Shown: positions 6,111-21,921, counted from the stretch's first letter. The stretch: 64,000 nucleotides of DNA from Clostridia bacterium (GCA_017453125.1 JAFTKS010000012.1:26632-90631), one strand, 5' to 3'. Notes: generated from the letters alone by a model not told the origin. Numbers and translations are program-made.

Positions 6111-6121
6111 TTTATTTTTCC

Positions 6122-6463
6122 TTAATAATTCAAAAATTCAATTTGAATTCTTTTATTACATCTATTCCATTCGTCAGTTAATTCTTGTTTGTGAGATAAA
6201 GTCCATTTATTAACTTCTTCAAGAGTTTTACGATTAAGTCTATTATCTCTATCAATTATTTCCCAAGTATCAATATAAATTTCACCAATTTTACGATTAT
6301 TTAAAGTAATATGAGCATGTGGCCTACTATGTTTTGCATTATCTTCATTGTAAACATAAATACTTAAAACGCTATTAAATCTCTGAACCCGGTCCCTCTG
6401 CTCAATAACTCTAAATCCATAAAGTAAGGATAATTTATGTAGTAAGTTTAAATCAATAAACAT
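6122..6463 (-). CDS. DUF4160-like small protein
   Basis: SIYVYNED..HSRPHAHI..GEIYID..W...ELTDEWN pattern typical of DUF4160; sits between mod and res. Confidence 0.7.
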   Translation of the reverse strand: MFIDLNLLHKLSLLYGFRVIEQRDRVQRFNSVLSIYVYNEDNAKHSRPHAHITLNNRKIGEIYIDTWEIIDRDNRLNRKTLEEVNKWTLSHKQELTDEWNRCNKRIQIEFLNY

Positions 6464-6465
6464 TA

Positions 6466-8499
6466 TTAGAACAGCCTCATTTCCTTGTTCTTTGATTTAA
6501 GGATTTCTTGTGTATTAATAAGAAGATTATCATCAGAGAAACATCTATCAGCAAATAAGTATGTTCCAACACTTTCATTAGCAAATTCTTCAATATCTTC
6601 AAGTTTGATATTCATTTCAGAACATACTAATAGTTTATAATCTTCACCATTTACAATATAACCCTTACCATTAGCAGTTTTTGTAACCGGTAATGTTAAA
6701 TCAATACCATATTTAAGCATAATTTCATAAACAAGGTCAATTTCAGTTCTACCATCTTCAAGATAATCAAAGCTGATTTGTCTAATTCTATTAGCAACTT
6801 CTTCAGCATTTTTAGTTGGTTCATTGTTCCATTTTTTAAGGTTAGAACTATCCAACTTAAACACTCTAAAGCCAACATCTAATTTCTCTGGATTATATTT
6901 ATAAATGTCTTTAGGTTCATGAATAAATCTGCTTTCAGATGTAATTTCACCTGTTTCATTATCTTTGTATTCAACATGACATAAATCACCAGCTGTTCCA
7001 GAAGATAACAAAGTCTTTCCTTCAATTTTTCTTTCTAGTCCATGTTGTTTTAATTCTTCTTGGATTTTTTGACCAGCTCTGCGAATTCTCTCTTTTCCAA
7101 TTTCACAAATATTTTCATATCCTGCCCTAAAAGCTTCACTATTTTCTTCAGTTTTTTCTGGTAATTGAACACAAATAAATTTTCTATCACCACCATCTTC
7201 AGCGTTTAGTTGAAAAATAGAATGTGGTGTTGTAGCAGAGCCTGAAAAGAAATCAAGAATAATTGAATTTTTATCTGTCGCAATTTCAATAAAATCCTTT
7301 ATTAATTCAACCGGCTTGCTATAATTAAAGATTCTAGCGCCAAAAAGTTCTTTTATAACCTTTACACCATTTCCGCTACTATAACCTTCTTTATAAAATA
7401 AAGTCTTTGGTTTTACACTAGGAATATTGTTTTCAGGTCTTATTTTTCTATTTATTTGATATTCACCATCATCATAAGTAACAATAATATTATGTCTTTC
7501 GTTTATTAACTTTTCTTTCGACCAACGCCAAGTCATTTCTTTTCCATTAGATAATGGTATCATTTCGTAATTATGAATATCATCTCTTGTTAAAGAAAAC
7601 GTTCCTTCTTTAGATAAATATATTGGATAAAATAGATTTGGTCTAAATTCTCTAGCACCATTTTCACCACTACCCTTTAGAGTAGCAACCTTATAATATC
7701 CATATTCATCTTCTTCCCATTCTTCTTTAATTTTATTTTTATCTTTAATTCTTAAATTGTTGAAAATTGGTTGTTTGTAACTCTTACTATACACTAAAGT
7801 ATATTCATGTGTTCCAGAAAATCCATATTCATCATTATTACCCTTTAGGTTCATAATAGTTGGCAATACTGCAATAAAATTCAACTCTCCAAAAACATCA
7901 TTACATATCTTTTTTAGATTATCAACTTCATTATCATCAATTGAAATAAAAATTAAACCATCTTCAGTAAGTAAATTTCTAGCCAACTTTAATCTAGGAT
8001 ACATCATATTTAGCCAATTTGTATGATAACGACCATCAGTATCAGCATTAGATTTTTGTGCTTGTCCTGTAATTTCTTTGTAATTAGCAATATTATCATT
8101 AAAATTATCTTTATATACAAAATCTCTACCAGTATTATATGGCGGATCTATATAAATCATTTTAATTTTGCCATTATAAGAAGATTGCAAAAGTTTAAGA
8201 ACCTCAAGGTTGTCCCCTTCAATATAGATGTTTTTGGTTGTATCCCAATTTTTACTCTCACTTTCACAAGGTCTTAAAGTTCCAGTAGAACGTTTTTGAG
8301 CAAGTTTGGTTGCTTCTGTTTTTCCATTCCAAACAAAAGAATATTGTTCTTTATCATTAGAAATATCTTGACCTAATAATAGCTCAAGCTCATTAAAATC
8401 TATTTTATTATCTCTAATAATTGACGGAAAAAGTTCCTTTAATTTCTCGATATTATCTTTCACAATATCTTTTGTCATACCATCTAATCTTTCAATCAT
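6466..8499 (-). CDS. mod: Type III R-M Mod subunit (N6-adenine methyltransferase)
   Basis: YIEGDNLEVLK, IYIDPPYNTG (DPPY), WLNMMYPRL, ILDFFSGSATT (FxGxG), EIGKERIRRA. Confidence 0.95.
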   Translation of the reverse strand: MIERLDGMTKDIVKDNIEKLKELFPSIIRDNKIDFNELELLLGQDISNDKEQYSFVWNGKTEATKLAQKRSTGTLRPCESESKNWDTTKNIYIEGDNLEVLKLLQSSYNGKIKMIYIDPPYNTGRDFVYKDNFNDNIANYKEITGQAQKSNADTDGRYHTNWLNMMYPRLKLARNLLTEDGLIFISIDDNEVDNLKKICNDVFGELNFIAVLPTIMNLKGNNDEYGFSGTHEYTLVYSKSYKQPIFNNLRIKDKNKIKEEWEEDEYGYYKVATLKGSGENGAREFRPNLFYPIYLSKEGTFSLTRDDIHNYEMIPLSNGKEMTWRWSKEKLINERHNIIVTYDDGEYQINRKIRPENNIPSVKPKTLFYKEGYSSGNGVKVIKELFGARIFNYSKPVELIKDFIEIATDKNSIILDFFSGSATTPHSIFQLNAEDGGDRKFICVQLPEKTEENSEAFRAGYENICEIGKERIRRAGQKIQEELKQHGLERKIEGKTLLSSGTAGDLCHVEYKDNETGEITSESRFIHEPKDIYKYNPEKLDVGFRVFKLDSSNLKKWNNEPTKNAEEVANRIRQISFDYLEDGRTEIDLVYEIMLKYGIDLTLPVTKTANGKGYIVNGEDYKLLVCSEMNIKLEDIEEFANESVGTYLFADRCFSDDNLLINTQEILKSKNKEMRLF

Positions 8500-8513
8500 A
8501 GTGTTGCTCCTTA

Positions 8514-11123
8514 TTATATCACTTCAAAGTATATCATAAAATTGTTGGATTTTGTGCTATTTAGAGAAGATTTGTTTAAAATTTCATCAATTTTTTTCTT
8601 TGTTTCTCTATTTATCCTTGATTTCATAATGAATTCATTGTCTTTCATCTCAAATAATTGCTCTGAAAGTTCATTTATTTTTTGATTTTTTGCAAGTCCT
8701 TCACCAAAATTATCATTTGATGTAGAATTTCTTACTTTATCAATTTCTCTTTGCAAGTCTTTGATTTGCTTTTCAAATTTTGCTTTTTCATTTTCTGCCA
8801 ACATCTGTATATGAGAAATTGGTAATTTTGAACTCTTATCCATTTCAGCCTTTAATGGCTCTGTAATGGTCGAAATTATATTTTCAAAGGATTTATCCAA
8901 TTCTTCTTTAATTTGGTCTGGAATGTCAATATTTTCGCTAAAATCAACACATTCAAGATCAAGTATCTCATCACATTGTTCATTGTTAAGATAATTACCT
9001 TTATCATCAATACCAACACATCTTGTTGCCCTAGTCCAGTTAAAAGCATAAGACACATTTAAACCATAGCTTGCAATATATCCTTTCATTCCTTTAAGTT
9101 TTTGATTGTCAGACTTTAAAATCAATTTACTAGGTTTTAAAAAGAATGAATTTGTCAAATTACTCAACATACTTTGACAAGGTTCTGAACCTAATGTAAA
9201 TGGTCTATACTTTTCATCATTTACTAATGAGAATTTGAATGGATAAGCAAATGGATTTTTATTATGCCATGCGGTTTTTGCTTCAAATGTATTTTCATCT
9301 ATAAAGCTATCTTTATAGTAAAATCTAGCCAAATCTTTAACAATATCCTCTAATTCAGATACTTTCCTTTTAATGATTTCAGCCATATTTCTAGTGCTTT
9401 CAACCAATTTTCTATCAAAAGTATTGAAAAGAATATCATTAGATTGAGCCTTTATATCTTCAAGTTCTTGTTTAAATTCTTCACTAAGTTCAGAGAATTC
9501 GATTTGAACTTCTTTTTTCTTTCTTATACTTTCTAGTGTATCTTTGATATTTTCTTCTATTTCACCATCAACTGCACCAGATATAATTGTATCGCTAGCG
9601 CCAATGATATTATTTGATATATTTAATCTCTTATAAAACAACTCATACATTCTAACATCTGAAAAGTTTTCCGGACATATAAAGTTGATTACAAAAACAT
9701 CAGTTTGTTGGCCAATTCTATGACATCTTGATATTCTTTGTTCCATATCAAGCAATACTTGTGGAAAGTCATAATTAATAACAAAAGCACTTTCTTGCCA
9801 GTTTAAGCTCTCATTTCCTTTGTCTGTTGATATTAGAATACTTGGTTTATCACTTCTTAAGAATTTGTCAATTGGTTCATTATCAGTTGTCCCATTAAAG
9901 GAATTTACACTATAATCAGTCTTTGACATCAAAAGTTTGTGTAAGTGTTCTTGTGATTGAGTATTACCAGTAAATATAACACATTTCTTTGCAATACCTT
10001 TTCTATGAAATGTTGAGAATGTTTGTTGTAAAGCCCTTAAAAGATATTCATCTTTAGTATTAATTTGTATAGATGTGGCAATATTTAACATATCCCTTAT
10101 TTCTTTTGCTTCAGCAAGGTTTTCTTCAGTAGCGTGTTTATTTAATCTTGTATAAATACCACTTAATGTTTTTGATAAAGCATAAGCTGAAGATGATAAG
10201 GTTCCATAAAACATTAAAGATAGTTCATAAGGGTCCATTTCTGGAAATGCTTGTTTAGTAGGTTTTGCAACATATTTTTCTATTAGAGAATAAAGTTCTC
10301 TTTCTTTATCAGTCATATTGTAAATTTGAGTTAAAATTTGTCTTTCTGGTAATTTAGTTTCAACTTTAACTTGACTTCTTAAAGTTCTAAAAGTATATGG
10401 CGCAATTATATCCCTTAACTCTGGATAGTTTTCTGGTTTTCTAAAGTATTTTTTATGAAATTCATCATAATCAGTAAATACATTATCATCAATAAAATTG
10501 ATTAAACCAAATATATCATCTTCATTCTTTTGAATAGGTGTTGCAGTTAGTAAAATCTTTTTAGCATTTGGAATGATAGAAAGAATTGTATCTGCTGTCT
10601 TGTTCTCTTTTATTTTGTAAGTTCTAAATCTATGAGCTTCATCTAAAATGCAAAGTTGCCAATCAAACTCTCTAAATTTATCAGCATTTGCATTAATATA
10701 ATCATAAGTTGTAAGAACTATCCCCTTTTCAAACTTTTGTAAACTTTGAATGTAATTTTCTGATACTGCTCTTTCTTTAGTATCAAGAAGATAACAACGG
10801 AAATTAAAAGTTCTTATTATACTTCTTAACCAATTATCTACTGTTGGTGTTGGAACAACAACCAGTATTTTATTGTTATTTACATTGTATTGTGAAAGGA
10901 TTAACAATGCTTCCATTGTCTTACCAAGACCTGCCTCATCAGCAAGAATAAAACCTTTTACAAAAGGATTTGACAAAGCAAAAGTTGACGCATAGATTTG
11001 ATGTGAAAAAATCTCGATACCACTTCTTAAATATTGTGGCACCAAACTTTCCATTTTGCCTAGCGTCAAGTCTTTTTGCAATTTTTCAATTACATGATAA
11101 GCCTGTATTTTGTTATTTATCAC
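8514..11123 (-). CDS. SNF2-family helicase/ATPase
   Basis: ILADEAGLGKT, ILDEAHR, LLTATPIQ, INYDFP..MEQRISRCHRIGQ. Start moved to GTG 11123 (AAGGA RBS 7 nt upstream); track gives TTG 11150. Confidence 0.9.
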   Translation of the reverse strand: MINNKIQAYHVIEKLQKDLTLGKMESLVPQYLRSGIEIFSHQIYASTFALSNPFVKGFILADEAGLGKTMEALLILSQYNVNNNKILVVVPTPTVDNWLRSIIRTFNFRCYLLDTKERAVSENYIQSLQKFEKGIVLTTYDYINANADKFREFDWQLCILDEAHRFRTYKIKENKTADTILSIIPNAKKILLTATPIQKNEDDIFGLINFIDDNVFTDYDEFHKKYFRKPENYPELRDIIAPYTFRTLRSQVKVETKLPERQILTQIYNMTDKERELYSLIEKYVAKPTKQAFPEMDPYELSLMFYGTLSSSAYALSKTLSGIYTRLNKHATEENLAEAKEIRDMLNIATSIQINTKDEYLLRALQQTFSTFHRKGIAKKCVIFTGNTQSQEHLHKLLMSKTDYSVNSFNGTTDNEPIDKFLRSDKPSILISTDKGNESLNWQESAFVINYDFPQVLLDMEQRISRCHRIGQQTDVFVINFICPENFSDVRMYELFYKRLNISNNIIGASDTIISGAVDGEIEENIKDTLESIRKKKEVQIEFSELSEEFKQELEDIKAQSNDILFNTFDRKLVESTRNMAEIIKRKVSELEDIVKDLARFYYKDSFIDENTFEAKTAWHNKNPFAYPFKFSLVNDEKYRPFTLGSEPCQSMLSNLTNSFFLKPSKLILKSDNQKLKGMKGYIASYGLNVSYAFNWTRATRCVGIDDKGNYLNNEQCDEILDLECVDFSENIDIPDQIKEELDKSFENIISTITEPLKAEMDKSSKLPISHIQMLAENEKAKFEKQIKDLQREIDKVRNSTSNDNFGEGLAKNQKINELSEQLFEMKDNEFIMKSRINRETKKKIDEILNKSSLNSTKSNNFMIYFEVI

Positions 11124-11157
11124 TTGAAAGTCCTTTTTAAATTTTATCAATGTAAAG

Positions 11158-11180
11158 ATTATATCATATAAATATGATAT
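11158..11180 (-). promoter_or_regulatory. Extended -10 promoter overlapped by palindrome ATATCATAT-AA-ATATGATAT
   Basis: Minus strand TGA-TATAAT at 11166-11158; perfect 9-bp inverted repeat at 11161-11180, upstream of the SNF2 gene. Confidence 0.5.
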
Positions 11181-11202
11181 TTTGTCGATTTTTCAAAATT
11201 TT

Positions 11203-11976
11203 TTAATCTAATTTGAAAACTTTTTGTTGTGGATTAGCCTCAACAAATAAATCTATTAATTTGTCATATACTTTTTCAGCAAGTTCTTCTTGTGTAAATG
11301 CGTCAAGAATATAAGCACCGCCCAAGAAAGATATATATTTCATAATTTCATAGTTGAATTTAGAACTATAATTACCCCCATCTTCAACGAACTTTTTAAT
11401 TGCTCTTAAGATAGCAAGTCTAATTGTTTTAGAATTAGAGTAATTTCTGAATATCATTTTTTCTAATATTTCTGGTATTTGGAAACAGAAATCTGTAAGT
11501 TCGTAAGGATTTTCTAAAGTTTCATCATAAGTAAATTTTACTTGCCAGAATAATTTTGCAATTCCATGAAAGAACAAACTTCTTTTATATGTATATTTGA
11601 ATAACCATCTATATTCTAATCTTGTTGTTCCCTTATCTTCGCAAGGGTTCCATCTATACATCAAGAAATCATATAATTTTCCAAAACCAAGACTTACCCA
11701 TAGTCTTTCATCACATAAAACACTATCTGGTAAATGTTTTAGATTTTCATATAAGATTTTAGCATTTTCACAATCAGTTTCTTGTTTATTTTCTTTATTT
11801 GTAATAAGTTCAAAGTTTTTAATTGTATATTTTGAACTTGTAAAAGGTTCTTCCTCTTTGAAAAAGTCTTTTAACCATTCATTATTAGGACATTCAGACA
11901 TCACATTTTTTATAGTTGAAAGATTAGTTTTCAAAGCAATAATTTTATCTTCAGATAATATTTTAATAGCTTCCAT
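11203..11976 (-). CDS. DUF6339-like protein
   Basis: NAKILYENL..DERLWVSL..YRW..RSLFFHGIAKLFW..ENPYELT resembles DUF6339 from memory; coupled to the upstream gene by a TAATG overlap. Confidence 0.6.
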   Translation of the reverse strand: MEAIKILSEDKIIALKTNLSTIKNVMSECPNNEWLKDFFKEEEPFTSSKYTIKNFELITNKENKQETDCENAKILYENLKHLPDSVLCDERLWVSLGFGKLYDFLMYRWNPCEDKGTTRLEYRWLFKYTYKRSLFFHGIAKLFWQVKFTYDETLENPYELTDFCFQIPEILEKMIFRNYSNSKTIRLAILRAIKKFVEDGGNYSSKFNYEIMKYISFLGGAYILDAFTQEELAEKVYDKLIDLFVEANPQQKVFKLD

Positions 11977-12851
11977 TATTCTTCATCTCCTCCTGTTTTT
12001 GCAATATTTTGAATGTCAGTAATACCTCTACAAATTGTATTTTCCATAATCTTTTGAGATACTTCAAAAGAATTCATACCTTCTAAACTTTCAACATCAA
12101 AGTCTAAACCTAATTTAATCACAGCCTTTTTTAGTGCCCTAGCCCATCTTCTATCGCTATATTGCATAAAGAATTCTGGATTTTTAAGGTCCTCAAAGCA
12201 TTTCATAAGTGCTGGTATAATAATCATTGAGTGAATAATTGACTTTGTTGCTGGATTATTCATAGCAATCTTAAATTGATTAAATTCTTCTTCTGGTAAT
12301 TGAATATTGATTTTGTTGCCTGTGTTGTCTATTACAATACCAACTCTTTCTTTATCTTTAATTTCAGTAACCGCAAAGATTGACGGAACATTTGAAAGGT
12401 CATCATTTTCTTTTTCAACTGTTAGCGATACTTCTTGTCCTACAGCAAGGATATTTCCTTTTTCTAACTCAAATGATAAATCTCTATAATCTTTATTAAA
12501 TTTCTCATTAGAATATCCATTAATATTTTGTAATGCAATAATAAACGGACAAAAATATATTACACCTTCAACCTTGTCTGCTGGTATTTTATAAACAAGA
12601 CCTGCCTCATCAATATTGATTAGTTCTCTATAACTTGTAGCACCACACTCTATATGAACTACAAATCCTGCCTTTTTCTCATTAATAAGAGTTTTTATAC
12701 CCTTATTACTTAATATTGGTGTAAAGTTTACTATAATTTCACTTGGCGAACATTGTGTGGTAATTTCAATGTTAAAATCACTTTCAACATAGTCATTATT
12801 GAAAGTTGGCGCTAACACCGGATATGGATATAATTTAGCCTTTATACGCAT
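11976..12851 (-). CDS. Uncharacterised 291-aa protein (N-terminal YPYPVL motif)
   Basis: Long ORF overlapping both neighbours; beta-rich N-terminal half, helical C-terminal half. Confidence 0.8.
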   Translation of the reverse strand: MRIKAKLYPYPVLAPTFNNDYVESDFNIEITTQCSPSEIIVNFTPILSNKGIKTLINEKKAGFVVHIECGATSYRELINIDEAGLVYKIPADKVEGVIYFCPFIIALQNINGYSNEKFNKDYRDLSFELEKGNILAVGQEVSLTVEKENDDLSNVPSIFAVTEIKDKERVGIVIDNTGNKINIQLPEEEFNQFKIAMNNPATKSIIHSMIIIPALMKCFEDLKNPEFFMQYSDRRWARALKKAVIKLGLDFDVESLEGMNSFEVSQKIMENTICRGITDIQNIAKTGGDEE

Positions 12852-14760
12852 ACAATTTCACCCCCATAGTTGAATATTCTTCTACATCAAGTTTAAGGTC
12901 AACTGAGATTTGATTATCTTCTTCAAATCTAAAGTAACCAACTCTATTTCTTCTACAAATAAGTTCTGTATCGTTCTTTATTCCAAGAACATTTATAGCC
13001 ATTTTTTCATTTTGTTCAGCAATCTTAAAGATTTCAATAAATCCTTTAAAAGTTGTTACTGTTGGTGTGAAAAGCAATCTATAAAGTCTTTCTTTTTTAT
13101 TGATACAAATAATTCTTACTTGTTTAGATTTTACATAAATTGATTTTTGGCCATTCATTTCATCACTATCATCAAGACCAACATCTTCGGTATCTCTATC
13201 CCCTTGACCACTAGGTTTATGACCATCATGTTCAAAACCTTGTCCATCATCACCATCTACAACTGAACCTTCGGTTGCTTCGGTGCTTTCCAAATCATCA
13301 CCAAGTTCATCTGTTTCAAGGTTTGCAACAGATTCCACCTTTTTATGTATTTGAAAATCAATATCAATGATTTTATTTAAAGTTTCTTTTTCATGAACTT
13401 TTTGTTTACCTTCATCAATATCATTATCTTCATCTGGAAGATACTCACCTGCACCTTCAATATCAATCTCACCACTAAAAGCCTTTGACGCTTCTTCAGT
13501 AAGTTTATTTGTAATAAGTTCAAATAATTGTTTTAATAAACCTTTTGCCATTGTAGGATTTTTCTCATATCTTTCTGGCAACCACTTTGTATGTGCTGGA
13601 TTTTCTAAATTTCTCAAGAATGTATTAAGTTCATCACCACAAATAATACCAATTCCTGCAAATCTTAATGACGGACAAAGACCTGTTTTATCCATAATCT
13701 TCATTCCAGAACTTCTAATCATTGATATTTTGTTAGAACCATCATATCTAATTGCAAAAGCAAGTTTGATATTTCCTAATGAAATTCCTTGTGGATATTC
13801 AAATGGTAGATTTATCCATTCTGTCTTTTCATTAGATAGAATTTCATAGTTTTGAATAGTAGTTTCAGATAATGACTTTTTGTATGTTGCAACTACATCA
13901 GCAAGTGTGCTTTTGTTTACTCTATATGAGTTAACAACAATCTCAAGTTTATTATCCCAAATGGCCATTAAAAAGCCGTCTAGCACTTCAGCAATAATGC
14001 TAGATTTAAAATCTTCTGACATATTAGAAAAACCAGAAATAAAAATATCTGTTCCATATTCTTTTCTTGTGAAAGATTTGTCAAGGTTTAACATCTCTGG
14101 ACTATGTAAAATGTTGTAACCATTATCTATACCATAATAACCGGTTCCTTGAGAAATATTATCACTTTGGTCTTTATTTACGCCAAGTTTAAATGATGTA
14201 AGTTTACTTACACCTTTATTTGCTTTTAGACCATCTATATCATAAGTGCTATAAAATACCGTTCTAAAATCTGAACAAGCGAAAGGTGCATTTTTACCAA
14301 TACCAAAAGAACCACCTTTTGAGTCCCCCTTTTCAGGAGCTCCAGATGAATTAATTAAGTTATCCCAATCACTACTTGTTTTTGAGTTAGAACCTCTTAA
14401 ACCTGTGGTATTAAAATCACTTATTCTTAAGAAATTGATTTTAGGTGCATTTAATCTTTCTATTGCTCTTGTAAAGAAATTTTTAGATTTTTGGTTTGGA
14501 TTGCTTTCCCAATATTCTAAACACTTATTCAAAACATCATTAAATCCCTTTTTATCTGGAAATTCATCAGACGCAATAGAAAATGTATTGAATTCAACAA
14601 CAACCGTTTTCTTATCATGTGCTGCGTCTAATGAGTTTTGACAAATTTCTCTTGCCAAAGATTTTACAGGCGTATCTTTAAAAGTTTCAATACCTGAATT
14701 GTTTAGTCCTTGTTTTTCACCACCATTACTTGACGGAAAACACCATTTAATGTTACTCAT
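12835..14760 (-). CDS. GHKL (HSP90/MORC-like) ATPase domain protein
   Basis: SLAREICQNSLDA (motif I), ISDFNTTGL (motif II variant), GGSFGIGK (motif III); acidic linker then a beta-rich C-terminal domain; RBS AAGGAG. Confidence 0.8.
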   Translation of the reverse strand: MSNIKWCFPSSNGGEKQGLNNSGIETFKDTPVKSLAREICQNSLDAAHDKKTVVVEFNTFSIASDEFPDKKGFNDVLNKCLEYWESNPNQKSKNFFTRAIERLNAPKINFLRISDFNTTGLRGSNSKTSSDWDNLINSSGAPEKGDSKGGSFGIGKNAPFACSDFRTVFYSTYDIDGLKANKGVSKLTSFKLGVNKDQSDNISQGTGYYGIDNGYNILHSPEMLNLDKSFTRKEYGTDIFISGFSNMSEDFKSSIIAEVLDGFLMAIWDNKLEIVVNSYRVNKSTLADVVATYKKSLSETTIQNYEILSNEKTEWINLPFEYPQGISLGNIKLAFAIRYDGSNKISMIRSSGMKIMDKTGLCPSLRFAGIGIICGDELNTFLRNLENPAHTKWLPERYEKNPTMAKGLLKQLFELITNKLTEEASKAFSGEIDIEGAGEYLPDEDNDIDEGKQKVHEKETLNKIIDIDFQIHKKVESVANLETDELGDDLESTEATEGSVVDGDDGQGFEHDGHKPSGQGDRDTEDVGLDDSDEMNGQKSIYVKSKQVRIICINKKERLYRLLFTPTVTTFKGFIEIFKIAEQNEKMAINVLGIKNDTELICRRNRVGYFRFEEDNQISVDLKLDVEEYSTMGVKLYAYKG

Positions 14761-14772
14761 ATTTTTTCTCCT

Positions 14773-14835
14773 TTACTTCCATTGACCTGTTATAAGTAAA
14801 TATATATACCCTATACAAATGAATAAATATATCAT
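14773..14835 (-). CDS. 20-aa hydrophobic sORF MIYLFICIGYIYLLITGQWK
   Basis: Not in the track. AGGAG RBS overlaps the upstream TAG, 5 nt before ATG; its TAA overlaps the AAGGAG RBS of the ATPase gene. Confidence 0.45.
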   Translation of the reverse strand: MIYLFICIGYIYLLITGQWK

Positions 14836-14843
14836 ATTAACTC

Positions 14844-15065
14844 CTATAATAGTGTGAACTTATCTCCACCACCTATCTTTTGAAATTGCTTTTTAGCTTC
14901 AGCAATTTCACTCTCAAGAGCTTTAAAAATTTTATCTACATCTTTTTGTGTGTAATCATACACAGATGTATTAGATAAATTTCCAAGCAATCTAATCATT
15001 TCAAGAGCTTTATTTGTTCTATTCTCTGCCAAGCGCACAAATTTATCTCTTTTGCTTTCTGCCAT
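14844..15065 (-). CDS. Conserved 73-aa helical protein (KRDKFVRLAENRTNKALEMIRLLGNLSN)
   Basis: GGAGG RBS and a strong promoter upstream; I recall this family from methyltransferase and defence loci, function unknown. Confidence 0.8.
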   Translation of the reverse strand: MAESKRDKFVRLAENRTNKALEMIRLLGNLSNTSVYDYTQKDVDKIFKALESEIAEAKKQFQKIGGGDKFTLL

Positions 15066-15099
15066 TTTAATCCTCCAACATACAATTTTTGTTGTAATT

Positions 15100-15128
15100 A
15101 TACTAGCATAGCACTCTCAATTTGTCAA
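15100..15128 (-). promoter_or_regulatory. SigA-type promoter of the 73-aa/GHKL operon
   Basis: TTGACA (15128-15123), 17-nt spacer ending TGC, TAGTAT (15105-15100). Confidence 0.7.
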
Positions 15129-15149
15129 TACATTTCTAAAATATTTTCA

Positions 15150-15188
15150 TAATATTTTGAAAATGTTAGTAATATTTTGAAAATGTTA
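15150..15188. repeat. Direct repeat TAATATTTTGAAAATGTTA x2, period 20
   Basis: 15150-15168 and 15170-15188 are identical; located just upstream of the -35 element. Confidence 0.8.
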
Positions 15189-15207
15189 AATAAAAAGAGC
15201 CTATTGA

Positions 15208-18200
15208 TTAACTCAATAAGCCCTTGTTTTGTAGGTATCTAACAAATAAAACATCATTCATTTCCAATTTGTCTTTTAAGTATGATTTTAATTCATCAAT
15301 ATTCTCTGCTGGTATTGATTTTAAAACAAACAATGGTTCACCATTTCTCATTTGGTTTTCAGTTTGCATAACTTTGATTTTTGTTGAGAATTTATTAATA
15401 CAACTATATAGTAACCAATCAGTCCACTTGACATCATTTGGCAAGAACCCGTAGTTCTTAAATCTAGAAGCAACAATAAATCCGTCTTTATCCATAGTAG
15501 ATAATAATACATTTTCAGCCACTTGTGCATTGTATTTGTTTAGTTTTGACTTCTCAACAGATATAATTGTTTCTTTATCTTTAAAGACATACTCATCTTT
15601 CATTTCATTTATATATTGAGTTATAGAAGCAAGATATAATCTATTTTCAGTAATATAAGATGTAAAATCAGAAATTTTTATTTCGTCATGTTGTCTTAAG
15701 AAATCCGTTATTCTATCTGCTCTACTTAAGATTTTTACACCTTTATTTGCAAAATATGGTCTTAAGAACTCAAAATCATTAGCAAAAAGACATTTTATAA
15801 TGCTAAACAATTTGAATTGACTATCAATATTATATTTAGACATAAGGTCTGAATGTTTTAAATCTAAAATCATTAATAGTTCGTGTGAGCTATGTGATTT
15901 ATTGTCTGAACAAAGATTTATTATAGATGATTTTAGCAAATTTTTATCTTCATCAGTCATATTCAAATTATCTGCGTGCATATAAGATTTTTGACAACAT
16001 ATAATTTCATCACCCGACAAAGTATTATATAAAATACTGTCCATAACTTCTGGAAATTCATCTTTTAATTCATCAAAAGTAACTTCTCTATTATCTTTAA
16101 TGTAAGATATAATTCTTTCTCTAACATGACCAATTTCAACGCCTTTATTTGCAAAATATGGTCTGCGGAATTCATATTGTTCTTGTAAGTAATATTGAAT
16201 TATACTAAACAACTTAAATTGATTGTCTATATTGTATTTTTGCAATAGTGATTTATTATGTTTTGTTAAATAATCAAACAATACATGAGTGTTAGAATAT
16301 TCATTTTCTAACAATAGCTCATCAATTGCCAATGCAAATATCTCACTATCAGACTTATCCATGTTTAATTTATCAACATGAATGTATGTTCCAGATAATT
16401 TTATAATATTTCCATTTGTTAATCCTGTAATAATAACACTATATGGAACATTTTTAAATTCATTCATAACTTGGTCAATTGACACTTCTCTTTCAGCCTG
16501 TTTTACATAATTATAAATATCATTATAGATACTTGTAGATTCCCCTGTTTTACTAATATAATCTCTAGAGAAGAAAAGTTTATTATAATAAAGTTCTTTT
16601 AAAACACCTTGTAAATGATATTTATTATCTATGCCCTCTGCCTTAAGTTCATTTTCAAAAGTTGCATATAACGTGTTTGTAAGGAAAATATCTCTATTAC
16701 TTTCTTGTATATAGTTATAAATTTTGTTTGCTAATTCATCAGAAATGTATTTTTCTTTCTTTAAGGCATATTTACCCTTTCCAACCAAATAACAACTAGC
16801 AACTATTCTTCCATATAAAGCTCTATCATTTTCTGGTATTTGATTATCATTAAAGGTTTTAGCATATTCAGCCCTAAATATATCTAAATCTTCTTTTTCA
16901 TATATTCTAATTCCATTTGGAAATGCCTTTGCAAGTATTTGTTTATATTTAAGAAGCAATCCCATTCTGTTTCTAGAATAAACTGTTCCGTTTTGTTTAA
17001 AATCTAATCTTAATATTTTTTCAATAATATCTAACGGTATTCTAACACCAATACTTTCTAGATATTTAGAACACTCATGAATAGTTGTTTTAAATTGTTC
17101 TTCAGTTAAAACACCTTCAATTCTATCAACAATACTTAATATCTCTTTATACCAATCAGTATTGTCTATAAAGTAATAAATATCAAGATCTTCAAGATAT
17201 TCAATATCATCACACTCTTCTTTTTTAAGTAAGTAATAAAAGAGCTCTGGATAAAAGTTAAAAATTGAACCCACATCATCTATTGTCATATACCATTCAT
17301 TTTTAACAAATGCTCTGATTAGTCTGGTCAATGTGCCATTTGCGGAATTATAGAATGAAGCAAACAATTCATCATATTTTTCTTCAATTTGCTGAATACC
17401 TTGTCTTGTATTACCATACATTTCACCAATTCGTTTTAGATTTTGACCTTGTGATCTTAACAACAATACTTCAACGTATTTTTCCCATTTTGAATTAGGA
17501 ACATTAGACGCATTTACTCTTTGTAGCAATAACTTAAATTTCTCATTTAAGAATGCTGGTAAACTTTGTTGTAATACTTTTACATAGTTTGTTATTACCT
17601 GATTATAATCAATTAAGAATGCTAAATTTTCTTCTTTTTCATTTATCAAATCTTCTACGGTATCATATTTTACTAGCGCTGGTAAGACCTCAAAAGGTAA
17701 AATATGTTTAATCTTTGCTTTTTTGTTATCATTATGTATATTTGATAATAATTGCTTTAAGTTCTTGCAGAAATCAGCAACTTCTTTTTTCTTTCTCAAT
17801 TCTTCAACATACATATCTAATAATTCTGTTAAAGAATTCTCATCATTTAAAACTTCCAAAAATTCTTCTTCTGAAAATAAATTTATAAAACCAAAAAGAA
17901 CATTATAATCTTCTTCATTAATAAATTTATCAATATCTGGATTAATCAGTTCTATATTTACATTATAATCTGGCACAAGTTCTTTAATTAAATTATTAAA
18001 TGAAATATAAGAATTTAAGCCATTTTTTGCTAGATATTGCAAACATTCCACACCTAGACCTTTTACAACTTTAATCCACTTTTCTCTATCTTTTAAAAGA
18101 TATTTTTTAAGGTCAAGTGTTTTTCCTTTCTGTTCACTTTCTGGTGTATTTTGTATTAAAAGTTGTTGCACAACACTTTTTAAAACAAACTTATCTGTTT

Positions 18201-18693
18201 GTAAAAATTCTTTAAGTTTTGCCATATTAAATGAACTAATATTAAATGTTTGTTGTAAAAAAGTATAGCAATCTCTTATATCAATTCTAGCTTCATCATT
18301 TTCATCAAAGAATTGGTAAAGAGCCTTCAACATTTTATATTTACTAACTCTAATAGTCTTTGTGCAATAGTAGTAATCTTCTGCATTGTCAGTTGGTCTT
18401 ACCCTATTATATTTTCTAGTTTGTATTTCTTCAGATTGTGGTTCTCTCACTATCTCATTATTAAAAGTTATATCAGATGTATCGAACTCATCTATTTTGT
18501 TTTGAACCAATTGAGATGTAATCATCTCTTTATTATCAAACAAAGAAATAAAATATGAGTATGAAAAAGATGTAATAGTTTCAAATCTTGGTTTTAAAGA
18601 TTTATATAAAAAACTACTACTTTGTGGTCCTACACAATTTTCATTCATAAAATCTAACGTAGCTTGTAATATTTGTAGTTCGATTTCACCCAT
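15208..18693 (-). CDS. Large (~1160 aa) protein with a central sigma70 region-4-like HTH and duplicated C-terminal domains
   Basis: LLRSQGQNLKRIGEMYGNTRQGIQQIEEK matches the sigma70 r4 HTH pattern; internal repeat KYNID.QFKLFSII...EF.RPYFANKGV 134 aa apart. Start at ATG 18693 (GAGGAG RBS). Confidence 0.75.
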   Translation of the reverse strand: MGEIELQILQATLDFMNENCVGPQSSSFLYKSLKPRFETITSFSYSYFISLFDNKEMITSQLVQNKIDEFDTSDITFNNEIVREPQSEEIQTRKYNRVRPTDNAEDYYYCTKTIRVSKYKMLKALYQFFDENDEARIDIRDCYTFLQQTFNISSFNMAKLKEFLQTDKFVLKSVVQQLLIQNTPESEQKGKTLDLKKYLLKDREKWIKVVKGLGVECLQYLAKNGLNSYISFNNLIKELVPDYNVNIELINPDIDKFINEEDYNVLFGFINLFSEEEFLEVLNDENSLTELLDMYVEELRKKKEVADFCKNLKQLLSNIHNDNKKAKIKHILPFEVLPALVKYDTVEDLINEKEENLAFLIDYNQVITNYVKVLQQSLPAFLNEKFKLLLQRVNASNVPNSKWEKYVEVLLLRSQGQNLKRIGEMYGNTRQGIQQIEEKYDELFASFYNSANGTLTRLIRAFVKNEWYMTIDDVGSIFNFYPELFYYLLKKEECDDIEYLEDLDIYYFIDNTDWYKEILSIVDRIEGVLTEEQFKTTIHECSKYLESIGVRIPLDIIEKILRLDFKQNGTVYSRNRMGLLLKYKQILAKAFPNGIRIYEKEDLDIFRAEYAKTFNDNQIPENDRALYGRIVASCYLVGKGKYALKKEKYISDELANKIYNYIQESNRDIFLTNTLYATFENELKAEGIDNKYHLQGVLKELYYNKLFFSRDYISKTGESTSIYNDIYNYVKQAEREVSIDQVMNEFKNVPYSVIITGLTNGNIIKLSGTYIHVDKLNMDKSDSEIFALAIDELLLENEYSNTHVLFDYLTKHNKSLLQKYNIDNQFKLFSIIQYYLQEQYEFRRPYFANKGVEIGHVRERIISYIKDNREVTFDELKDEFPEVMDSILYNTLSGDEIICCQKSYMHADNLNMTDEDKNLLKSSIINLCSDNKSHSSHELLMILDLKHSDLMSKYNIDSQFKLFSIIKCLFANDFEFLRPYFANKGVKILSRADRITDFLRQHDEIKISDFTSYITENRLYLASITQYINEMKDEYVFKDKETIISVEKSKLNKYNAQVAENVLLSTMDKDGFIVASRFKNYGFLPNDVKWTDWLLYSCINKFSTKIKVMQTENQMRNGEPLFVLKSIPAENIDELKSYLKDKLEMNDVLFVRYLQNKGLLS

Positions 18694-18791
18694 AGAAAAG
18701 TCTCCTCTCAAATCATTATAACATACAAATTCCTAATTTTCACCATTGTATGACAAAATTTTAAAAAAAATTCTAAAAATAGTTTTAACTA

Positions 18792-19256
18792 TTAATAGAA
18801 TGCTTTTTCTAAATATTTAATTATATCATTTTTTATCCTTCTAATTTTCTTAATATTCGGTTGATTTTTCAATTTGTTTTGTATAAATCTTTTCTGTTGT
18901 TCAGATAATTTTATAGGTGTAATATGTAGTTCTATAGAATGTATAACATCATCTAATAAATATTTATCAGAAACAATATCATAATCCTTTTTATTCCTTT
19001 CACATTCTCGTTTTAAAAATTCAAGTTCACTTTCATTTGGTTCTGGAACAAAAAACTCAAGATTAGAAAAATAATCATACAAACAATCTTCTATTTGTTT
19101 ATCATCAACTTTATCTTGCCCCTTTGCTATTTTAAACATTTCATCAATCAATTCTTCTTTTGTAATGACAGAATATCTTTCAACACCAAATTTTCTAGCT
19201 TCATTTCTTAATTTATGGATAGGTGTATCCATTAATTTTTTTCTTAAATCACTCAT
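18792..19256 (-). CDS. Protein with an N-terminal Rho_N/HeH-like motif
   Basis: TPIHKLRNEARKFGVERYSVITKEELIDEM resembles the Rho N-terminal helix-extension-helix. Confidence 0.55.
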   Translation of the reverse strand: MSDLRKKLMDTPIHKLRNEARKFGVERYSVITKEELIDEMFKIAKGQDKVDDKQIEDCLYDYFSNLEFFVPEPNESELEFLKRECERNKKDYDIVSDKYLLDDVIHSIELHITPIKLSEQQKRFIQNKLKNQPNIKKIRRIKNDIIKYLEKAFY

Positions 19257-19266
19257 ACAAATCCTT

Positions 19267-19824
19267 TTATGGTTTTATAACCACTACATCAATTCCCTTT
19301 TTCTTTGCTTTCTCAATGGTTGATTTAGTTCCACCACCCAAGCCATTATATAAAGCAATTACAAGAGATGAGTTGTTTAGCATATATTCATTTCTCTCAA
19401 TCATGCAACCGTCAACATATTCGTCATAAATACAACGAACACCGTCTAATTGCTTAACAAGTTTTCTATATCTATCAATTTGTGCTTGTGGCCACCTGTC
19501 ATATTGGTTTTTACAAGGTATTGCTCCAATCAATCTAATATTCGGATACTTCTTTTTAAGTTCTAATACAATTTCAGCGCAAATCATATCAAATCCAAGA
19601 GCCATACCACAAAGAAATGTTGTATATCCTCTTTGTATAGCTTTCTCAATTTCTGCCTTGGCATTTTCTTTCATTTCAATACAACGTGGATCTTTCTCAT
19701 TAAATTTCCAAGGCAACTTCTGTGCCCTATGACCTGTAAAGCATGCAGTCACTTCACTCATTAAATCAAAGATTTCTTGGCATTTGTCAATTATATCTTC
19801 AATTGATTTTCTTCCAAACAACAT
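19267..19824 (-). CDS. SLOG superfamily protein, YpsA/DUF1273 type
   Basis: TACFTGHR, FLCGMALGFD, AIPC..Q, ERNEYML, GGTKSTIEKA. Confidence 0.85.
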   Translation of the reverse strand: MLFGRKSIEDIIDKCQEIFDLMSEVTACFTGHRAQKLPWKFNEKDPRCIEMKENAKAEIEKAIQRGYTTFLCGMALGFDMICAEIVLELKKKYPNIRLIGAIPCKNQYDRWPQAQIDRYRKLVKQLDGVRCIYDEYVDGCMIERNEYMLNNSSLVIALYNGLGGGTKSTIEKAKKKGIDVVVIKP

Positions 19825-19976
19825 AACAAAACTCCCTTTTGATTGTTTTTATATACCTATTATAGCACAAAAAAGTCAAAAAACAACATTTTTGATTGTT
19901 TTTATGTGCTTATATTAAAAATTACTTATGCTAAAATATACTTACATTAAAACAATCGTTTAAGTTTGGAGTTTTT

Positions 19977-20219
19977 ATGAAATTAAATGAAGCTGTTGCT
20001 ATTAGAATTAGAGAAATATTAAAAGAAAGGAATATGACACAATATCGTTTAGAACAAAATGCTGGTATTACTCACAATACTATGCTAAGTTTAATGAATG
20101 GTAGATACAAAAGTTGTAATTTAACAACTGTTGTCTTGATTATTAGAGCTTTTGGTATGACAGTTTCAGAGTTCTTTAACCACCCTGTTTTTGAAAGTGA
20201 TGACTTAATTGTCGAATAA
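19977..20219 (+). CDS. XRE-family HTH regulator
   Basis: ILKERNMTQYRLEQNAGITHNTM..L.NG pattern. Confidence 0.85.
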   Translation: MKLNEAVAIRIREILKERNMTQYRLEQNAGITHNTMLSLMNGRYKSCNLTTVVLIIRAFGMTVSEFFNHPVFESDDLIVE

Positions 20220-20279
20220 TTCTAGTTTCCCTATATGAATAACCCCTATTTATTGCTAAAATATATAGGGGTTTTATTT

Positions 20280-20522
20280 ATGAAAATTACTGAAAGTGTA
20301 TCTTATAGAGTGAAAGAAATTTTAGAAGCAAGAAAGATGACACAATATCGCCTAGAACAACTGACAGGAATTAGTCATAATACAATGAGTTCCCTATTGA
20401 ATTGTAGATATGAGAGTTGCAATCTTAAAACAATTTTTATAATAATTGAAGCATTGGATTTGTCTATTCATCAGTTTTTTAACAGCCCAGCATTTGAGTT
20501 TTTTAATTTGGATATTGAGTAA
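20280..20522 (+). CDS. XRE-family HTH regulator, tandem paralog
   Basis: 44/80 aa identical to the preceding gene when started at ATG 20280. Confidence 0.85.
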   Translation: MKITESVSYRVKEILEARKMTQYRLEQLTGISHNTMSSLLNCRYESCNLKTIFIIIEALDLSIHQFFNSPAFEFFNLDIE

Positions 20523-20583
20523 TCAAGTTGCGTATATAGAGAAAAAGTCAACACTCAAAATGGTGTTGACTGTTTTTTCATGA

Positions 20584-21042
20584 CTATTTATATGCTATAC
20601 CCAATTTATCATAAACGAATTGTCGATATTCTTCAAGCCTATCTTGTGACTGTTTGCAAAACTTTACAATTAAATTTATGATATATATCATTCCATTTTT
20701 ATAGCTTTCCTTATCAAATTCATCAAAATCATTTAGATTAATTTGTTTCTGATTGATTACTATATCAAAAAACAAATTGTTTTTTCCATACTCATCAACA
20801 ACATAATCAGTCCCCACAATAAATGCTGTGCTCCAAGAACAAAAATTATAATGTCCTTGAATAACACTTAGAATATTATCAATTCTTCTTTTTACACTTT
20901 TTAAGCAGTCCAATCTATAAATATCTTCTTTTCTATTAAGTATTAGGTCTATTCTCTGTTTTAAACATCTTACCCTATACTCTGTTTTTGTTTTAGTTAA
21001 AAAACATTCATTTAACATATCTTCACCAAACATATTTATCAA
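20584..21042 (-). CDS. Hypothetical protein
   Basis: 152-aa ORF, AAGGAG RBS, bidirectional terminator at about 20543-20579 downstream. Confidence 0.6.
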   Translation of the reverse strand: MINMFGEDMLNECFLTKTKTEYRVRCLKQRIDLILNRKEDIYRLDCLKSVKRRIDNILSVIQGHYNFCSWSTAFIVGTDYVVDEYGKNNLFFDIVINQKQINLNDFDEFDKESYKNGMIYIINLIVKFCKQSQDRLEEYRQFVYDKLGIAYK

Positions 21043-21273: not shown

Positions 21274-21921
21274 CTATGGTCCTATTATAGCAATAACGGG
21301 TGCCATAGCTGCACCCATATTATTTACATCATTAATTCCAAAATCTGTTACCTTCCCAAACGTCGCATTAGAAATACATATTTCTGTAACACCTGCACCC
21401 AAAACCATACAACCAGCTCCAGTAACAGTCCACTGACTAACAGGTGGACGCTGGTTTCCAAGCTCAAGAGGAAATCTATACTGCCTTTCCGCCGAACTAA
21501 AATGACTACCCGTTGCACAAGCTACCTTATCAAAATACCCACCATCAACAAATGTTGCACCGACAGCAATCGCTTCTGCCATTGTACTACAAGCACCATA
21601 CAAACCCAAATATGAAATATCAAACTCTCTTGCCGTAAAACTCGAAGAAATTATCTGATTAAGCAAATCCCCTGATATCAATAAATCAATATCTTTCGAC
21701 TTAATACCTGCATTATCTATAGCCCCTAATATACAATGTTCTAACATTTTTCTCTCGGCTCTTTCATAAGACTTCTCTCCAAAAGTATCATCTTTTAAAA
21801 TAAAATCAAAATATTTTGAAAAATTACCAGCACCTTCTTTTTCTCCAACAATTGCGTAATTTCCCAAAACACCAACAGGATTTGTAAAACTAATAGTTTG
21901 ATTACCTAATTTTTTGCCCAT
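21274..21921 (-). pseudogene. spoVAD: 5' portion of stage V sporulation protein AD, truncated
   Basis: SYEKAE-like SYERAERK, GDLLNQIISS, GLYGACSTMAE, SSHF-like GSHFSSAERQYRFPLELG, QWTVTGAG, NMGAAMAP; then VIAIIGP-stop. The conserved continuation is absent in all three frames; full SpoVAD is about 330-340 aa. Confidence 0.85.

Follow-up and report, generated by a model that had tools for sequence, protein, structure and literature searches.

An intact, extended copy of the phage-defence candidate PDC-M33 beside a type III restriction-modification operon in a Clostridia bacterium

Nine co-oriented minus-strand genes were called as open reading frames (ORFs) at positions 3195-18693 of a 64,000-nt stretch of a Clostridia bacterium genome (GCA_017453125.1, JAFTKS010000012.1:26632-90631; hereafter the window, with coordinates counted from its start). 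The five at 11203-18693, which are the subject of this study, form an intact, extended copy of the catalogued phage-defence candidate PDC-M33. An earlier reading made from the DNA alone (the sequence-only reading) had described five co-oriented genes, the last three of them translationally coupled, and both descriptions hold. The five ORFs, all of them minus-strand, are intact; the genes for protein A (641 aa; 12835-14760) and protein B (291 aa; 11976-12851) overlap by 17 nt (ATGCGTATAAAGGCTAA), and the junction between B and protein C (257 aa; 11203-11976) is a TAATG with a 1-nt overlap (GAATAATGG) and an AGGAGG site just 5'. Upstream of A lie the genes for a 73-aa leader protein (14844-15065) and a large accessory protein (15208-18693). 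The start of the latter was taken as ATG 18693, giving 1161 aa, and not as the TTG 18711 offered by the ORF caller (1167 aa), because a ribosome-binding site (GAGAGGAGA) precedes the ATG; a -10 box (TGTTATAAT) precedes it as well.

The trio A-B-C matches the PADLOC models of PDC-M33 end to end. Protein A aligns with PDC-M33A (PDLC04582) over residues 3-638 and profile positions 2-625 of 627 (E = 1.3e-191, 636.5 bits), and protein B with PDC-M33B (PDLC04583) over residues 1-286 (E = 1.6e-91). Protein C matches PDC-M33C (PDLC04586, E = 2.1e-63) as well as three more PDC-M33C models, and its earlier label, a 257-aa DUF6339-like protein, is confirmed by a full match to DUF6339 (Pfam PF19866, E = 6.7e-45). 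The order and orientation A>>B>>C are those of the catalogued cassette CAS_00129 (FAM_02818>>FAM_02838>>FAM_01881), which was discovered by guilt-by-embedding inside BREX, DISARM and type I restriction-modification (R-M) loci and annotated "Assign as candidate PDC-M33" (Payne, Hughes, Fineran and Jackson 2024, supplementary file 8; bioRxiv 10.1101/2024.01.29.577857). Judged by these profile matches, the locus almost certainly belongs to PDC-M33. The sequence-only reading had presented the genes as an undescribed system that it could not match to a named one, had not expected a complete PADLOC match, and had itself listed a match to a named system as grounds for abandoning the proposal; a complete PDC-M33 match was obtained, so the claim of novelty fails.

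The family of protein A is large, with at least 3,976 proteins at E ≤ 1e-3 among 8,000 candidates scored. We collected 80 loci from species-representative genomes and searched their ORFs with the window proteins; the set consists mostly of Clostridia and other Bacillota, together with Veillonella, Enterococcus, Heliobacterium and a few metagenome-assembled genomes labelled otherwise. B stands beside A in 79 of the 80 loci and C in 72, the misses being contig ends, and this recurrence places the A-B-C arrangement far beyond chance. An independent sample of seven copies, from five genomes spread evenly over the phylum and two plasmids, shows the trio every time, the 73-aa gene in two and the large gene in none. 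Co-occurrence in other genomes, on which the sequence-only reading had made its module depend, is therefore found, with the counts just given, for B and C with A. The distribution is nevertheless patchy: among 400 other genomes of the phylum 5 carry the system, and among 14 model genomes none does.

The two upstream genes are distributed differently from the trio. The 73-aa gene lies directly upstream of A in 54 of the 80 loci, and 37 loci hold a homologue of the large protein (about 890-1180 aa), which the other 43 lack, among them two entire clades of the A tree. In the window's clade the large gene lies upstream of 73-A-B-C (L001-L010, L030 and L074, by locus index), and in a second large group it follows C immediately and, as in L011, sometimes overlaps it. 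In a maximum-likelihood tree of the 80 A proteins, the window belongs to a 13-member clade (Shimodaira-Hasegawa-like approximate likelihood-ratio support 99) whose large genes are without exception upstream. Mapping the presence and position of the large gene onto this tree required 3 state changes, against a mean of 23 and a minimum of 17 in 300 label shuffles, and therefore points to long-term co-inheritance of the large gene rather than chance adjacency. Its absence from 43 of the 80 loci and from all seven independent samples led us to reject the large protein as a core component. The core is A-B-C, and the 73-aa and large genes are clade-specific additions; the five genes, which had been proposed as one unit, reduce to this core, the large gene having its own promoter and terminator here.

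Protein A is organized into a putative GHKL head, a middle domain, an acidic linker (about residues 440-545) and a conserved beta-rich C-terminal domain. Alignment with 16 homologues (39-77% identity) revealed four blocks in the head. An N-box, ExxxNxxDA, spans residues 38-46 (within SLAREICQNSLDA), with E38, N42 and D45-A46 invariant. The second block, DFNTTGL at 115-121 (RISDFNTTGL in context), has invariant D115 and G120 and is non-canonical relative to the DxGxG type; the third, GGSFGIGK at 149-156, has invariant G150, G153, G155 and K156; and the fourth is an invariant GTD at 236-238, followed later by an MxRxxGMKI block. The order and spacing of these blocks correspond to GHKL motifs I-IV, with an insertion between I and II. 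When a hidden Markov model (HMM) of the N-terminal 300 residues of the A family was run against 229 ORFs of 33 loci, MutL and other HATPase_c_3 ORFs ranked above the rest (Mann-Whitney p = 2e-17), a ranking driven mostly by the N-box. The best match (E = 0.0024), to a HATPase_c_3 protein other than MutL, covered the N-box and the stretch from the G2 box to motif IV. Protein A is thus probably a divergent GHKL ATPase, as judged from motifs and profiles. Searches directed at the window's own copy were silent: A gave no HATPase_c_3 match at E ≤ 5, and a genome-wide search with PF13589 (HATPase_c_3) at E ≤ 10 did not recover gene A.

Proteins B and C resemble little in current databases. The predicted model of B (predicted local distance difference test score, pLDDT, 85.9) places a beta-sandwich at about residues 26-185 and a helical bundle at 187-287, and a KLYPYPVL motif at its N-terminus is conserved in the alignment. 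No significant match to B was found in Pfam, NCBIfam, PHROGs or PDB sequence-profile searches, and Foldseek against the PDB returned at best generic Fn3 and cytokine-receptor sandwiches (E ≥ 1e-3, TM-score ≤ 0.25). Protein C is predicted with high confidence (pLDDT 94.2, predicted TM-score 0.90) as a mostly alpha-helical fold for which Foldseek detected no structural neighbour in the PDB (best E = 2.9) or BFVD (best E = 1.2). Its conserved residues are D89-E90-R91, D151, E159 and D225. A PDB profile match of C to a designed repeat protein (0.0027) was dismissed.

The 73-aa protein shares 44-79% identity with its homologues in the fetched loci, with F9, R11, R16, N29, Y36, Y38 and F70 invariant. 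It has no significant family match in Pfam, NCBIfam, PHROGs or PADLOC; a sub-threshold match to MspI was regarded as spurious, and a search for distant homologues over 128 word-sharing candidates added little. Its gene heads what is probably a transcription unit of its own with A, B and C. We read the large gene as a separate unit because a terminator-like hairpin of 13 pairs followed by a T-run (15195-15225, minus strand, predicted), which overlaps the large-gene stop codon and stands between that gene and the 73-aa/A/B/C operon, and then a promoter-like site (15100-15128, minus strand; TTGACA-17-TAGTAT with a TG, by consensus match) precede the 73-aa gene. The large gene has a promoter-like site of its own at 18715-18743 on the same strand (GTGAAA-17-TATAAT, again with a TG, by consensus match).

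Inspection of the sequence between hairpin and promoter disclosed a candidate operator array at 15149-15186 (minus strand). Two perfect 18-nt copies of AACATTTTCAAAATATTA, each an imperfect palindrome (AAYATTTT / AAAATRTT), occupy 15186-15169 and 15166-15149, 20 nt apart, and a third, partial copy lies directly 5' of the -35 box of the 73-aa gene, the whole array falling within 15131-15190. Operons led by the 73-aa gene show these half-sites ahead of a conserved TATTGACA -35 box in every clade, also where the large gene is absent, and often as clear inverted repeats (e.g., GATAACATTTTCAAAATGTTATC). In the ten closest loci (L001-L007, L009, L010 and L030), the 7-mer AAATATT/AATATTT occurs in 2-6 copies per 150 nt upstream, against 0.1-0.4 expected. 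These palindromic repeats look like an operator array for a dimeric regulator, and because the array travels with the 73-aa gene, the 73-aa protein is the obvious candidate for a DNA-binding autoregulator, which it probably is. Second copies of the gene were also observed at L038:19410-19637 and L041:11078-11308, beyond an opposite-strand C5-methylase, where they head small ORFs of about 80-300 aa; this suggests that the leader or regulator family also serves other cassettes.

The large protein belongs to a family with RNA polymerase (RNAP)-like domains. Sigma70_r4 is detected in 27 of 31 homologues (best E = 9e-9) and RNA_pol_A_CTD in 18 of 31 (best E = 6e-38), and the family profile matches the RpoA C-terminal domain (4.5e-11) and sigma70/SigA region 4 (1.6e-9) in the PDB. 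Among the PDB matches of the sigma region 4-like part are complexes of region 4 with the T4 anti-sigma factor AsiA or with Rsd (1tlh, 2p7v). The remaining C-terminal region of about 600 aa has no match at the family level. In the window's own protein both domains are degenerate: Sigma70_r4 and RNA_pol_A_CTD fall below detection in Pfam, no Pfam, NCBIfam or PHROGs match was obtained, and a segment, QNLKRIGEMYGNTRQGIQQIEEKY, aligns with the family pattern TLQxIGxxxxxTRERVRQIE. The earlier "sigma70-r4" label is therefore justified for the family, by the 27 of 31 homologues and PDB matches near 1e-9, but undetectable in this copy. The large proteins of the window and L001 also contain about 134 alignment columns lacking from the other 29 homologues (C-terminal third, 15208-16300), which hold a second copy of the conserved C-terminal motif KYNID.QFKLFSII...RPYFANKGV.

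Downstream of C the minus strand continues into a complete type III R-M pair. A gap of 52 nt leads to the gene for an SNF2-family ATPase of 878 aa (8514-11150), a possible functional partner with a partial match, far under cut-off, to the DrmD model. Gaps of 14, 2 and 11 nt then separate, in turn, the type III methyltransferase Mod (6466-8499; N6_N4_Mtase; MTase_III, E = 1.5e-188), a candidate self-marking partner; a 113-aa DUF4160 protein in the mod-res interval (6122-6463; Pfam); and the 971-aa Res (3195-6110; REase_III, E = 4.8e-295), which combines a helicase with a C-terminal endonuclease domain (RE_endonuc, residues 856-961). The five genes had been placed directly upstream of an R-M operon, and SNF2, Mod, DUF4160 and Res do follow C. 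Terminator prediction gave none in the interval between C and SNF2; the 52-nt spacer (11151-11202) holds an extended -10-like sequence, TGATATAAT, ending about 7 nt before the annotated TTG of SNF2. The SNF2/type III operon may accordingly be transcribed from a promoter of its own, with a leader that is very short or missing. The window, L001-L003 and L030 all keep Mod/Res genes next to the system, although the gene order is rearranged (upstream in L001, downstream in the others), and SNF2 also follows C in L002 and L003. Between the window and L001, identity is 77% for A, 77% for B, 62% for C, 75% for Res and 51% for Mod, so that Mod/Res have diverged much like the system itself.

Across the wider family, the most frequent neighbours are C5-cytosine methylases. 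We took as nearest neighbours those ORFs of 150 aa or more that lie no further than 1.5 kb from the system on either side. Of these 118, 30 are C5-methylases (PF00145), 5 ResIII, 4 NgoFVII_C, 3 Eco57I-type methylases, 2 N6_N4 methylases and 2 EcoRII-C. A C5-methylase lies within 3 kb in 41 of the 80 loci; where both flanks extend 3 kb or more (also 41 loci), 25 have one within 3 kb and 18 within 500 bp. Clades differ in where the methylase stands: upstream in the same orientation, downstream in either the convergent or the same orientation, or between the 73-aa gene and A. This clade-structured arrangement changes 15 times on the A tree, where shuffled labels gave a mean of 36 and a minimum of 30. 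In several loci, L021 among them, no restriction enzyme accompanies the methylase. The nested form was seen at L033:7345-9983 and L036:7280-9976, where a C5-methylase gene and a 530-aa ORF with a PD...D-x-K-like motif (SAPDVLLL...IIDNKAY) sit between the 73-aa gene and the A gene; by its sequence this is an apparent R-M pair inside a PDC-M33 operon, the reverse of the embedding that revealed the candidate.

A methylase as an obligatory component was rejected, since an 18-locus clade, together with L005, L008 and L074 of the window's clade, has none within reach. The methylase-less clade instead neighbours BREX PglZ, helicase-HNH, NERD, PLD-helicase-DUF3427, Schlafen and OLD-like AAA genes, and reverse transcriptase and protease genes also occur beside loci that lack a methylase. 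Defence context is equally evident in an island at L021 (a Schlafen/AlbA-type protein, methylase, 73-aa gene, A, B, C, large gene and guaA), on the Lactococcus lactis plasmid pS127, where an AlwI restriction gene and abiGI/abiGII flank the trio, and on a Priestia plasmid, where it adjoins a Sau3AI-like enzyme and Dcm. The sequence-only reading is borne out insofar as the genes form a conserved, horizontally mobile module in a defence and R-M setting, with type III R-M here and C5-methylases, BREX, Abi and reverse transcriptase-protease genes elsewhere.

The window's island lies on a mobile element. The spoVAD gene is split: profile residues 1-205 are encoded at 21292-21906 of the window, and residues 200-328 on another contig (G000:C8:111313-111696), followed by spoVAE. 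A large serine recombinase is divided in the same way, its C-terminal end lying about 90 nt from the C-terminal part of spoVAD and its N-terminal part opening the window's contig (G000:C7:1-1239); L121:1288-1743 belongs to the same set of fragments. This configuration implies a skin-like element of about 48.5 kb inserted in spoVAD and carrying the whole defence island, with further cargo that includes a VirB4-like ATPase, a primase-like gene and a C5-methylase. This 367-aa methylase (PPC and ENV motifs; L122:2528-3631, that is, G000:C7:2528-3631) lies about 35 kb from the PDC-M33 genes, adjoins the primase-like gene and could be an orphan, element-borne enzyme. Between the large gene and the spoVAD breakpoint (18792-21042), we observed genes for a 154-aa protein with a weakly Rho-N-like start, a 152-aa orphan and a 185-aa PRK13660-type protein (phrog_289), and two opposite-strand genes of the XRE-type helix-turn-helix class; these small genes are probably cargo or the regulatory end of the inserted element.

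Taken together, we interpret the locus as an extended PDC-M33 that acts as a methylation-linked, ATP-driven, restriction-like module, a reading to which we assign a probability of roughly 55%. A-B-C would form a stoichiometric complex in which the GHKL head of A uses ATP to dimerise and so clamps or loops DNA, in the manner of MutL, MORC and Hsp90-type engines; such an ATP-dependent clamp mode is general to MutL, MORC, Hsp90 and topoisomerase GHKL engines. The complex may act against incoming DNA that lacks the mark of an adjacent methyltransferase, the marking enzyme being a C5-cytosine methylase in about half of the related loci and the type III Mod here, so that the module would supply the ATP-dependent "restriction-like" half of an R-M-type system. 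The damaging step may reside in C, at the conserved D89-E90-R91, D151, E159 and D225, or else in the C-terminal domain of A or in a neighbour (here Res), or there may be no cleavage, as in BREX. The 73-aa protein would probably autoregulate the operon, and the large protein would probably target or regulate the complex through DNA or transcription-factor-like contacts. A role against phages or other mobile genetic elements is fairly likely in itself, while methylation-coupled discrimination of self from non-self is more tentative and stands somewhat short of even odds.

Several observations weigh against this reading. The GHKL homology of A, as far as sequence comparison goes, is not statistically established: A has no significant match in Pfam, NCBIfam or PDB sequence-profile searches, only 1 of 16 A members gives a weak HATPase_c_3 match (E = 0.014), and when the A family was compared by hhalign with an alignment of MutL N-termini from 21 genomes, the N-boxes fell in register at a probability of 3%. 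Of the GHKL ATPase that the sequence-only reading had named, the invariant motifs stand, but the profile evidence is weak. Foldseek found no nuclease fold (PD-(D/E)xK, HNH, phospholipase D (PLD) or other) in the predicted structures of B and C; in this the earlier impression that no PD-(D/E)xK, HNH or PLD motif was obvious, and the search for cryptic nuclease folds that it had called for, came to the same answer. The DUF6339 protein C, which had been put forward as the effector, has no positive evidence in its favour, its confident model (pLDDT 94) lacking a structural neighbour. The methylase-less clade of 18 and the three methylase-less members of the window's clade sit poorly with a methylation-linked mode. 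Some of the adjacent C5-methylases belong to complete type II pairs (with Sau3AI-like, NgoFVII or EcoRII domains), and part of the methylase linkage may therefore be ordinary defence-island clustering. Here, the R-M operon has a promoter-like site of its own and is a complete type III system alone. Finally, PDC-M33 is among 145 PDC candidates that their authors call untested (bioRxiv 10.1101/2024.01.29.577857), and the terms "PDC-M33" and "DUF6339" appeared in no main text across the literature searched.

The alternative that survives best, though still unlikely, is that the nine genes make up one composite R-M machine in which the GHKL complex, no defence system by itself, serves as an accessory engine of the type III enzyme that loops or holds DNA between its recognition and cleavage sites. 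Res would then supply the nuclease that A-B-C lack, and the gap of only 52 nt without a predicted terminator, the SNF2 gene after C in L002 and L003, and the Mod/Res genes beside the system in five members of the window's clade all agree with such a machine. Type III R-M systems are self-sufficient, however. Most loci hold A-B-C without type III or SNF2 genes (SNF2 in 4 of 80, Mod in 4 and Res in 5), and even within the window's clade the association breaks down: the Mod-Res of L001 comes without an SNF2 match, in L030 C is followed by fragmented Mod/Res ORFs and no SNF2, and L005 and L008 have no R-M neighbour. The extended -10-like promoter before SNF2 speaks against a single machine as well. 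As a theme, GHKL genes associated with SFII helicases and methylases were described by Iyer et al. 2008 (PMC2292703), and the composite machine would fit that theme.

We consider it improbable that the system is instead a methylation-independent, nuclease-free immune sensor, in which the GHKL clamp, resembling a eukaryotic MORC, traps, compacts or silences invading DNA or triggers abortive infection and the large protein is an RNAP decoy that senses phage hijackers. The absence of a nuclease fold from B and C and the existence of an entire clade without methylase neighbours would suit such a sensor, as would the large gene, which is co-inherited with A, overlaps C in some loci and encodes alpha-CTD-like and sigma region 4-like domains that are clear in the family. 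The AsiA and Rsd complexes among the PDB neighbours (2p7v and 1tlh) mean that region 4 is a known target of modulators. Yet the large protein cannot be a general sensor, because over half of the loci and every one of the seven independent copies lack it, and its RNAP-like domains are degenerate and below detection in the window. Both domains are, moreover, ordinary DNA-binding modules, for which a plain DNA-targeting or regulatory role is simpler, and the strong methylase linkage would be left unexplained. Slightly less probable again is a nuclease-free PDC-M33 in which a MORC-like clamp (A), a beta-sandwich adaptor (B) and a new-fold protein (C) would entrap or silence DNA without the host's methylation mark; in the extended form, the large protein, mimicking the alpha-CTD and sigma region 4 surfaces of RNAP, would steer or trigger the clamp and serve as a decoy for phage proteins that hijack transcription.

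In very-short-patch repair, Vsr is linked to MutL. A non-defence role of that kind, as MutL-like repair or surveillance tied to cytosine methylation, or one in element maintenance or competitor exclusion, is the least probable reading: the spoVAD-inserted integrative element, the plasmid copies, the linkage to C5-methylases specifically rather than to defence genes in general, and the Vsr endonucleases reported in such neighbourhoods (PMC2292703) would accommodate it, but the partner in the window's clade is an N6-adenine type III Mod and not a C5 enzyme, the methylase-less loci adjoin defence genes (BREX, Abi, reverse transcriptase-protease, PLD-helicase), and the cassette was discovered inside BREX, DISARM and type I R-M loci, with L039 lying within a BREX locus.

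The extent of discovery here is limited because the core cassette is already catalogued in PADLOC. PDC-M33 is nonetheless widespread, with about 4,000 or more A homologues, a presence in about 1% of genomes of the phylum, and copies on plasmids that dairy and gut bacteria carry. The system combines a probable GHKL ATPase with two proteins without known fold or activity and is tightly linked to DNA methylases. If PDC-M33 restricts foreign DNA, then either its effector goes unrecognised by current fold libraries or there is no cutting; in both cases R-M-type immunity would gain a new mechanism, with implications for how eukaryotic MORC silencing arose. A nuclease-free clamp with a decoy, if true, would amount to the prokaryotic equivalent of silencing by MORC proteins, joined to decoy sensing. 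The extended variant offers experimental handles in its leader gene with operator array, in an RNAP-domain accessory protein that co-evolves with the ATPase, and in a type III/SNF2 partner.

Among the known systems that come close are the GHKL proteins of R-M operons. In Iyer, Abhiman and Aravind 2008 (PMC2292703), GHKL genes are described beside methylases (mostly cytosine), Rad25-like type III Res or SWI2/SNF2 helicases, with Vsr endonucleases noted in their neighbourhoods, and the proposed role of the R-M-operon GHKL protein is that of an ATP-driven DNA-looping engine. The window resembles this MORC/paraMORC pattern in that a GHKL-type gene lies beside SNF2, type III Mod and Res, with C5-methylases dominating the neighbours of its relatives. 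It differs in that A reaches no HATPase_c_3 threshold and could not be assigned to MORC or paraMORC1-5, and a term search of PMC2292703 did not find B, C, the 73-aa protein or the large protein as partners. Beyond this, no study of the A-B-C cassette was found in the literature on GHKL or MORC together with phage defence or R-M.

The likeness to BREX is one of logic, since both are multi-gene systems that combine a methyltransferase with ATPases and lack a recognisable nuclease, and L039 is embedded in a locus with PglZ. No BREX family, however, is represented in the window's operon, where the one BREX model to match does so through the generic helicase part of the SNF2 protein next door. Two single-protein GHKL systems provide a further comparison: Tiamat, a defence protein reported to be an ATPase and DNase, and VcSduA (Shedu type I-D/paraMORC3), whose anti-phage defence requires the motif I glutamate. 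Both have a nuclease activity or domain of their own, whereas no nuclease domain was detected in A and neither PADLOC model matched; membership of Tiamat or Shedu was rejected on the PADLOC and NCBIfam results. Mza (mzaABCDE), which likewise contains a MutL-like ATPase, was rejected too: none of the nine proteins matched an Mza model at E ≤ 0.01, and Z1, DUF4420 and AIPR are absent, in agreement with its earlier dismissal. DISARM was also set aside, as the SNF2 protein alone matches DrmD, and only partially (303 bits against an NCBIfam cut-off of 950); no DrmB or DrmC match was obtained, and the sole DrmA match in PADLOC is weak (E = 1.5e-13) and falls on the SNF2 helicase core.

The locus is thus best compared with the PDC-M33 cassette itself. 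Four features go beyond what is catalogued, and the literature searched gave no instance of them: a conserved leader gene preceded by an operator array, an accessory protein with RNAP-like domains that co-evolves with the system, the quantitative methylase linkage, and the type III/SNF2 pairing on a spoVAD-interrupting element. The cassette comprises three genes with no assigned mechanism and was found embedded in BREX, DISARM or type I R-M loci; the window's copy adds a 73-aa leader and a large protein of the alpha-CTD/sigma region 4 family, and is paired with SNF2 and type III Mod/Res.

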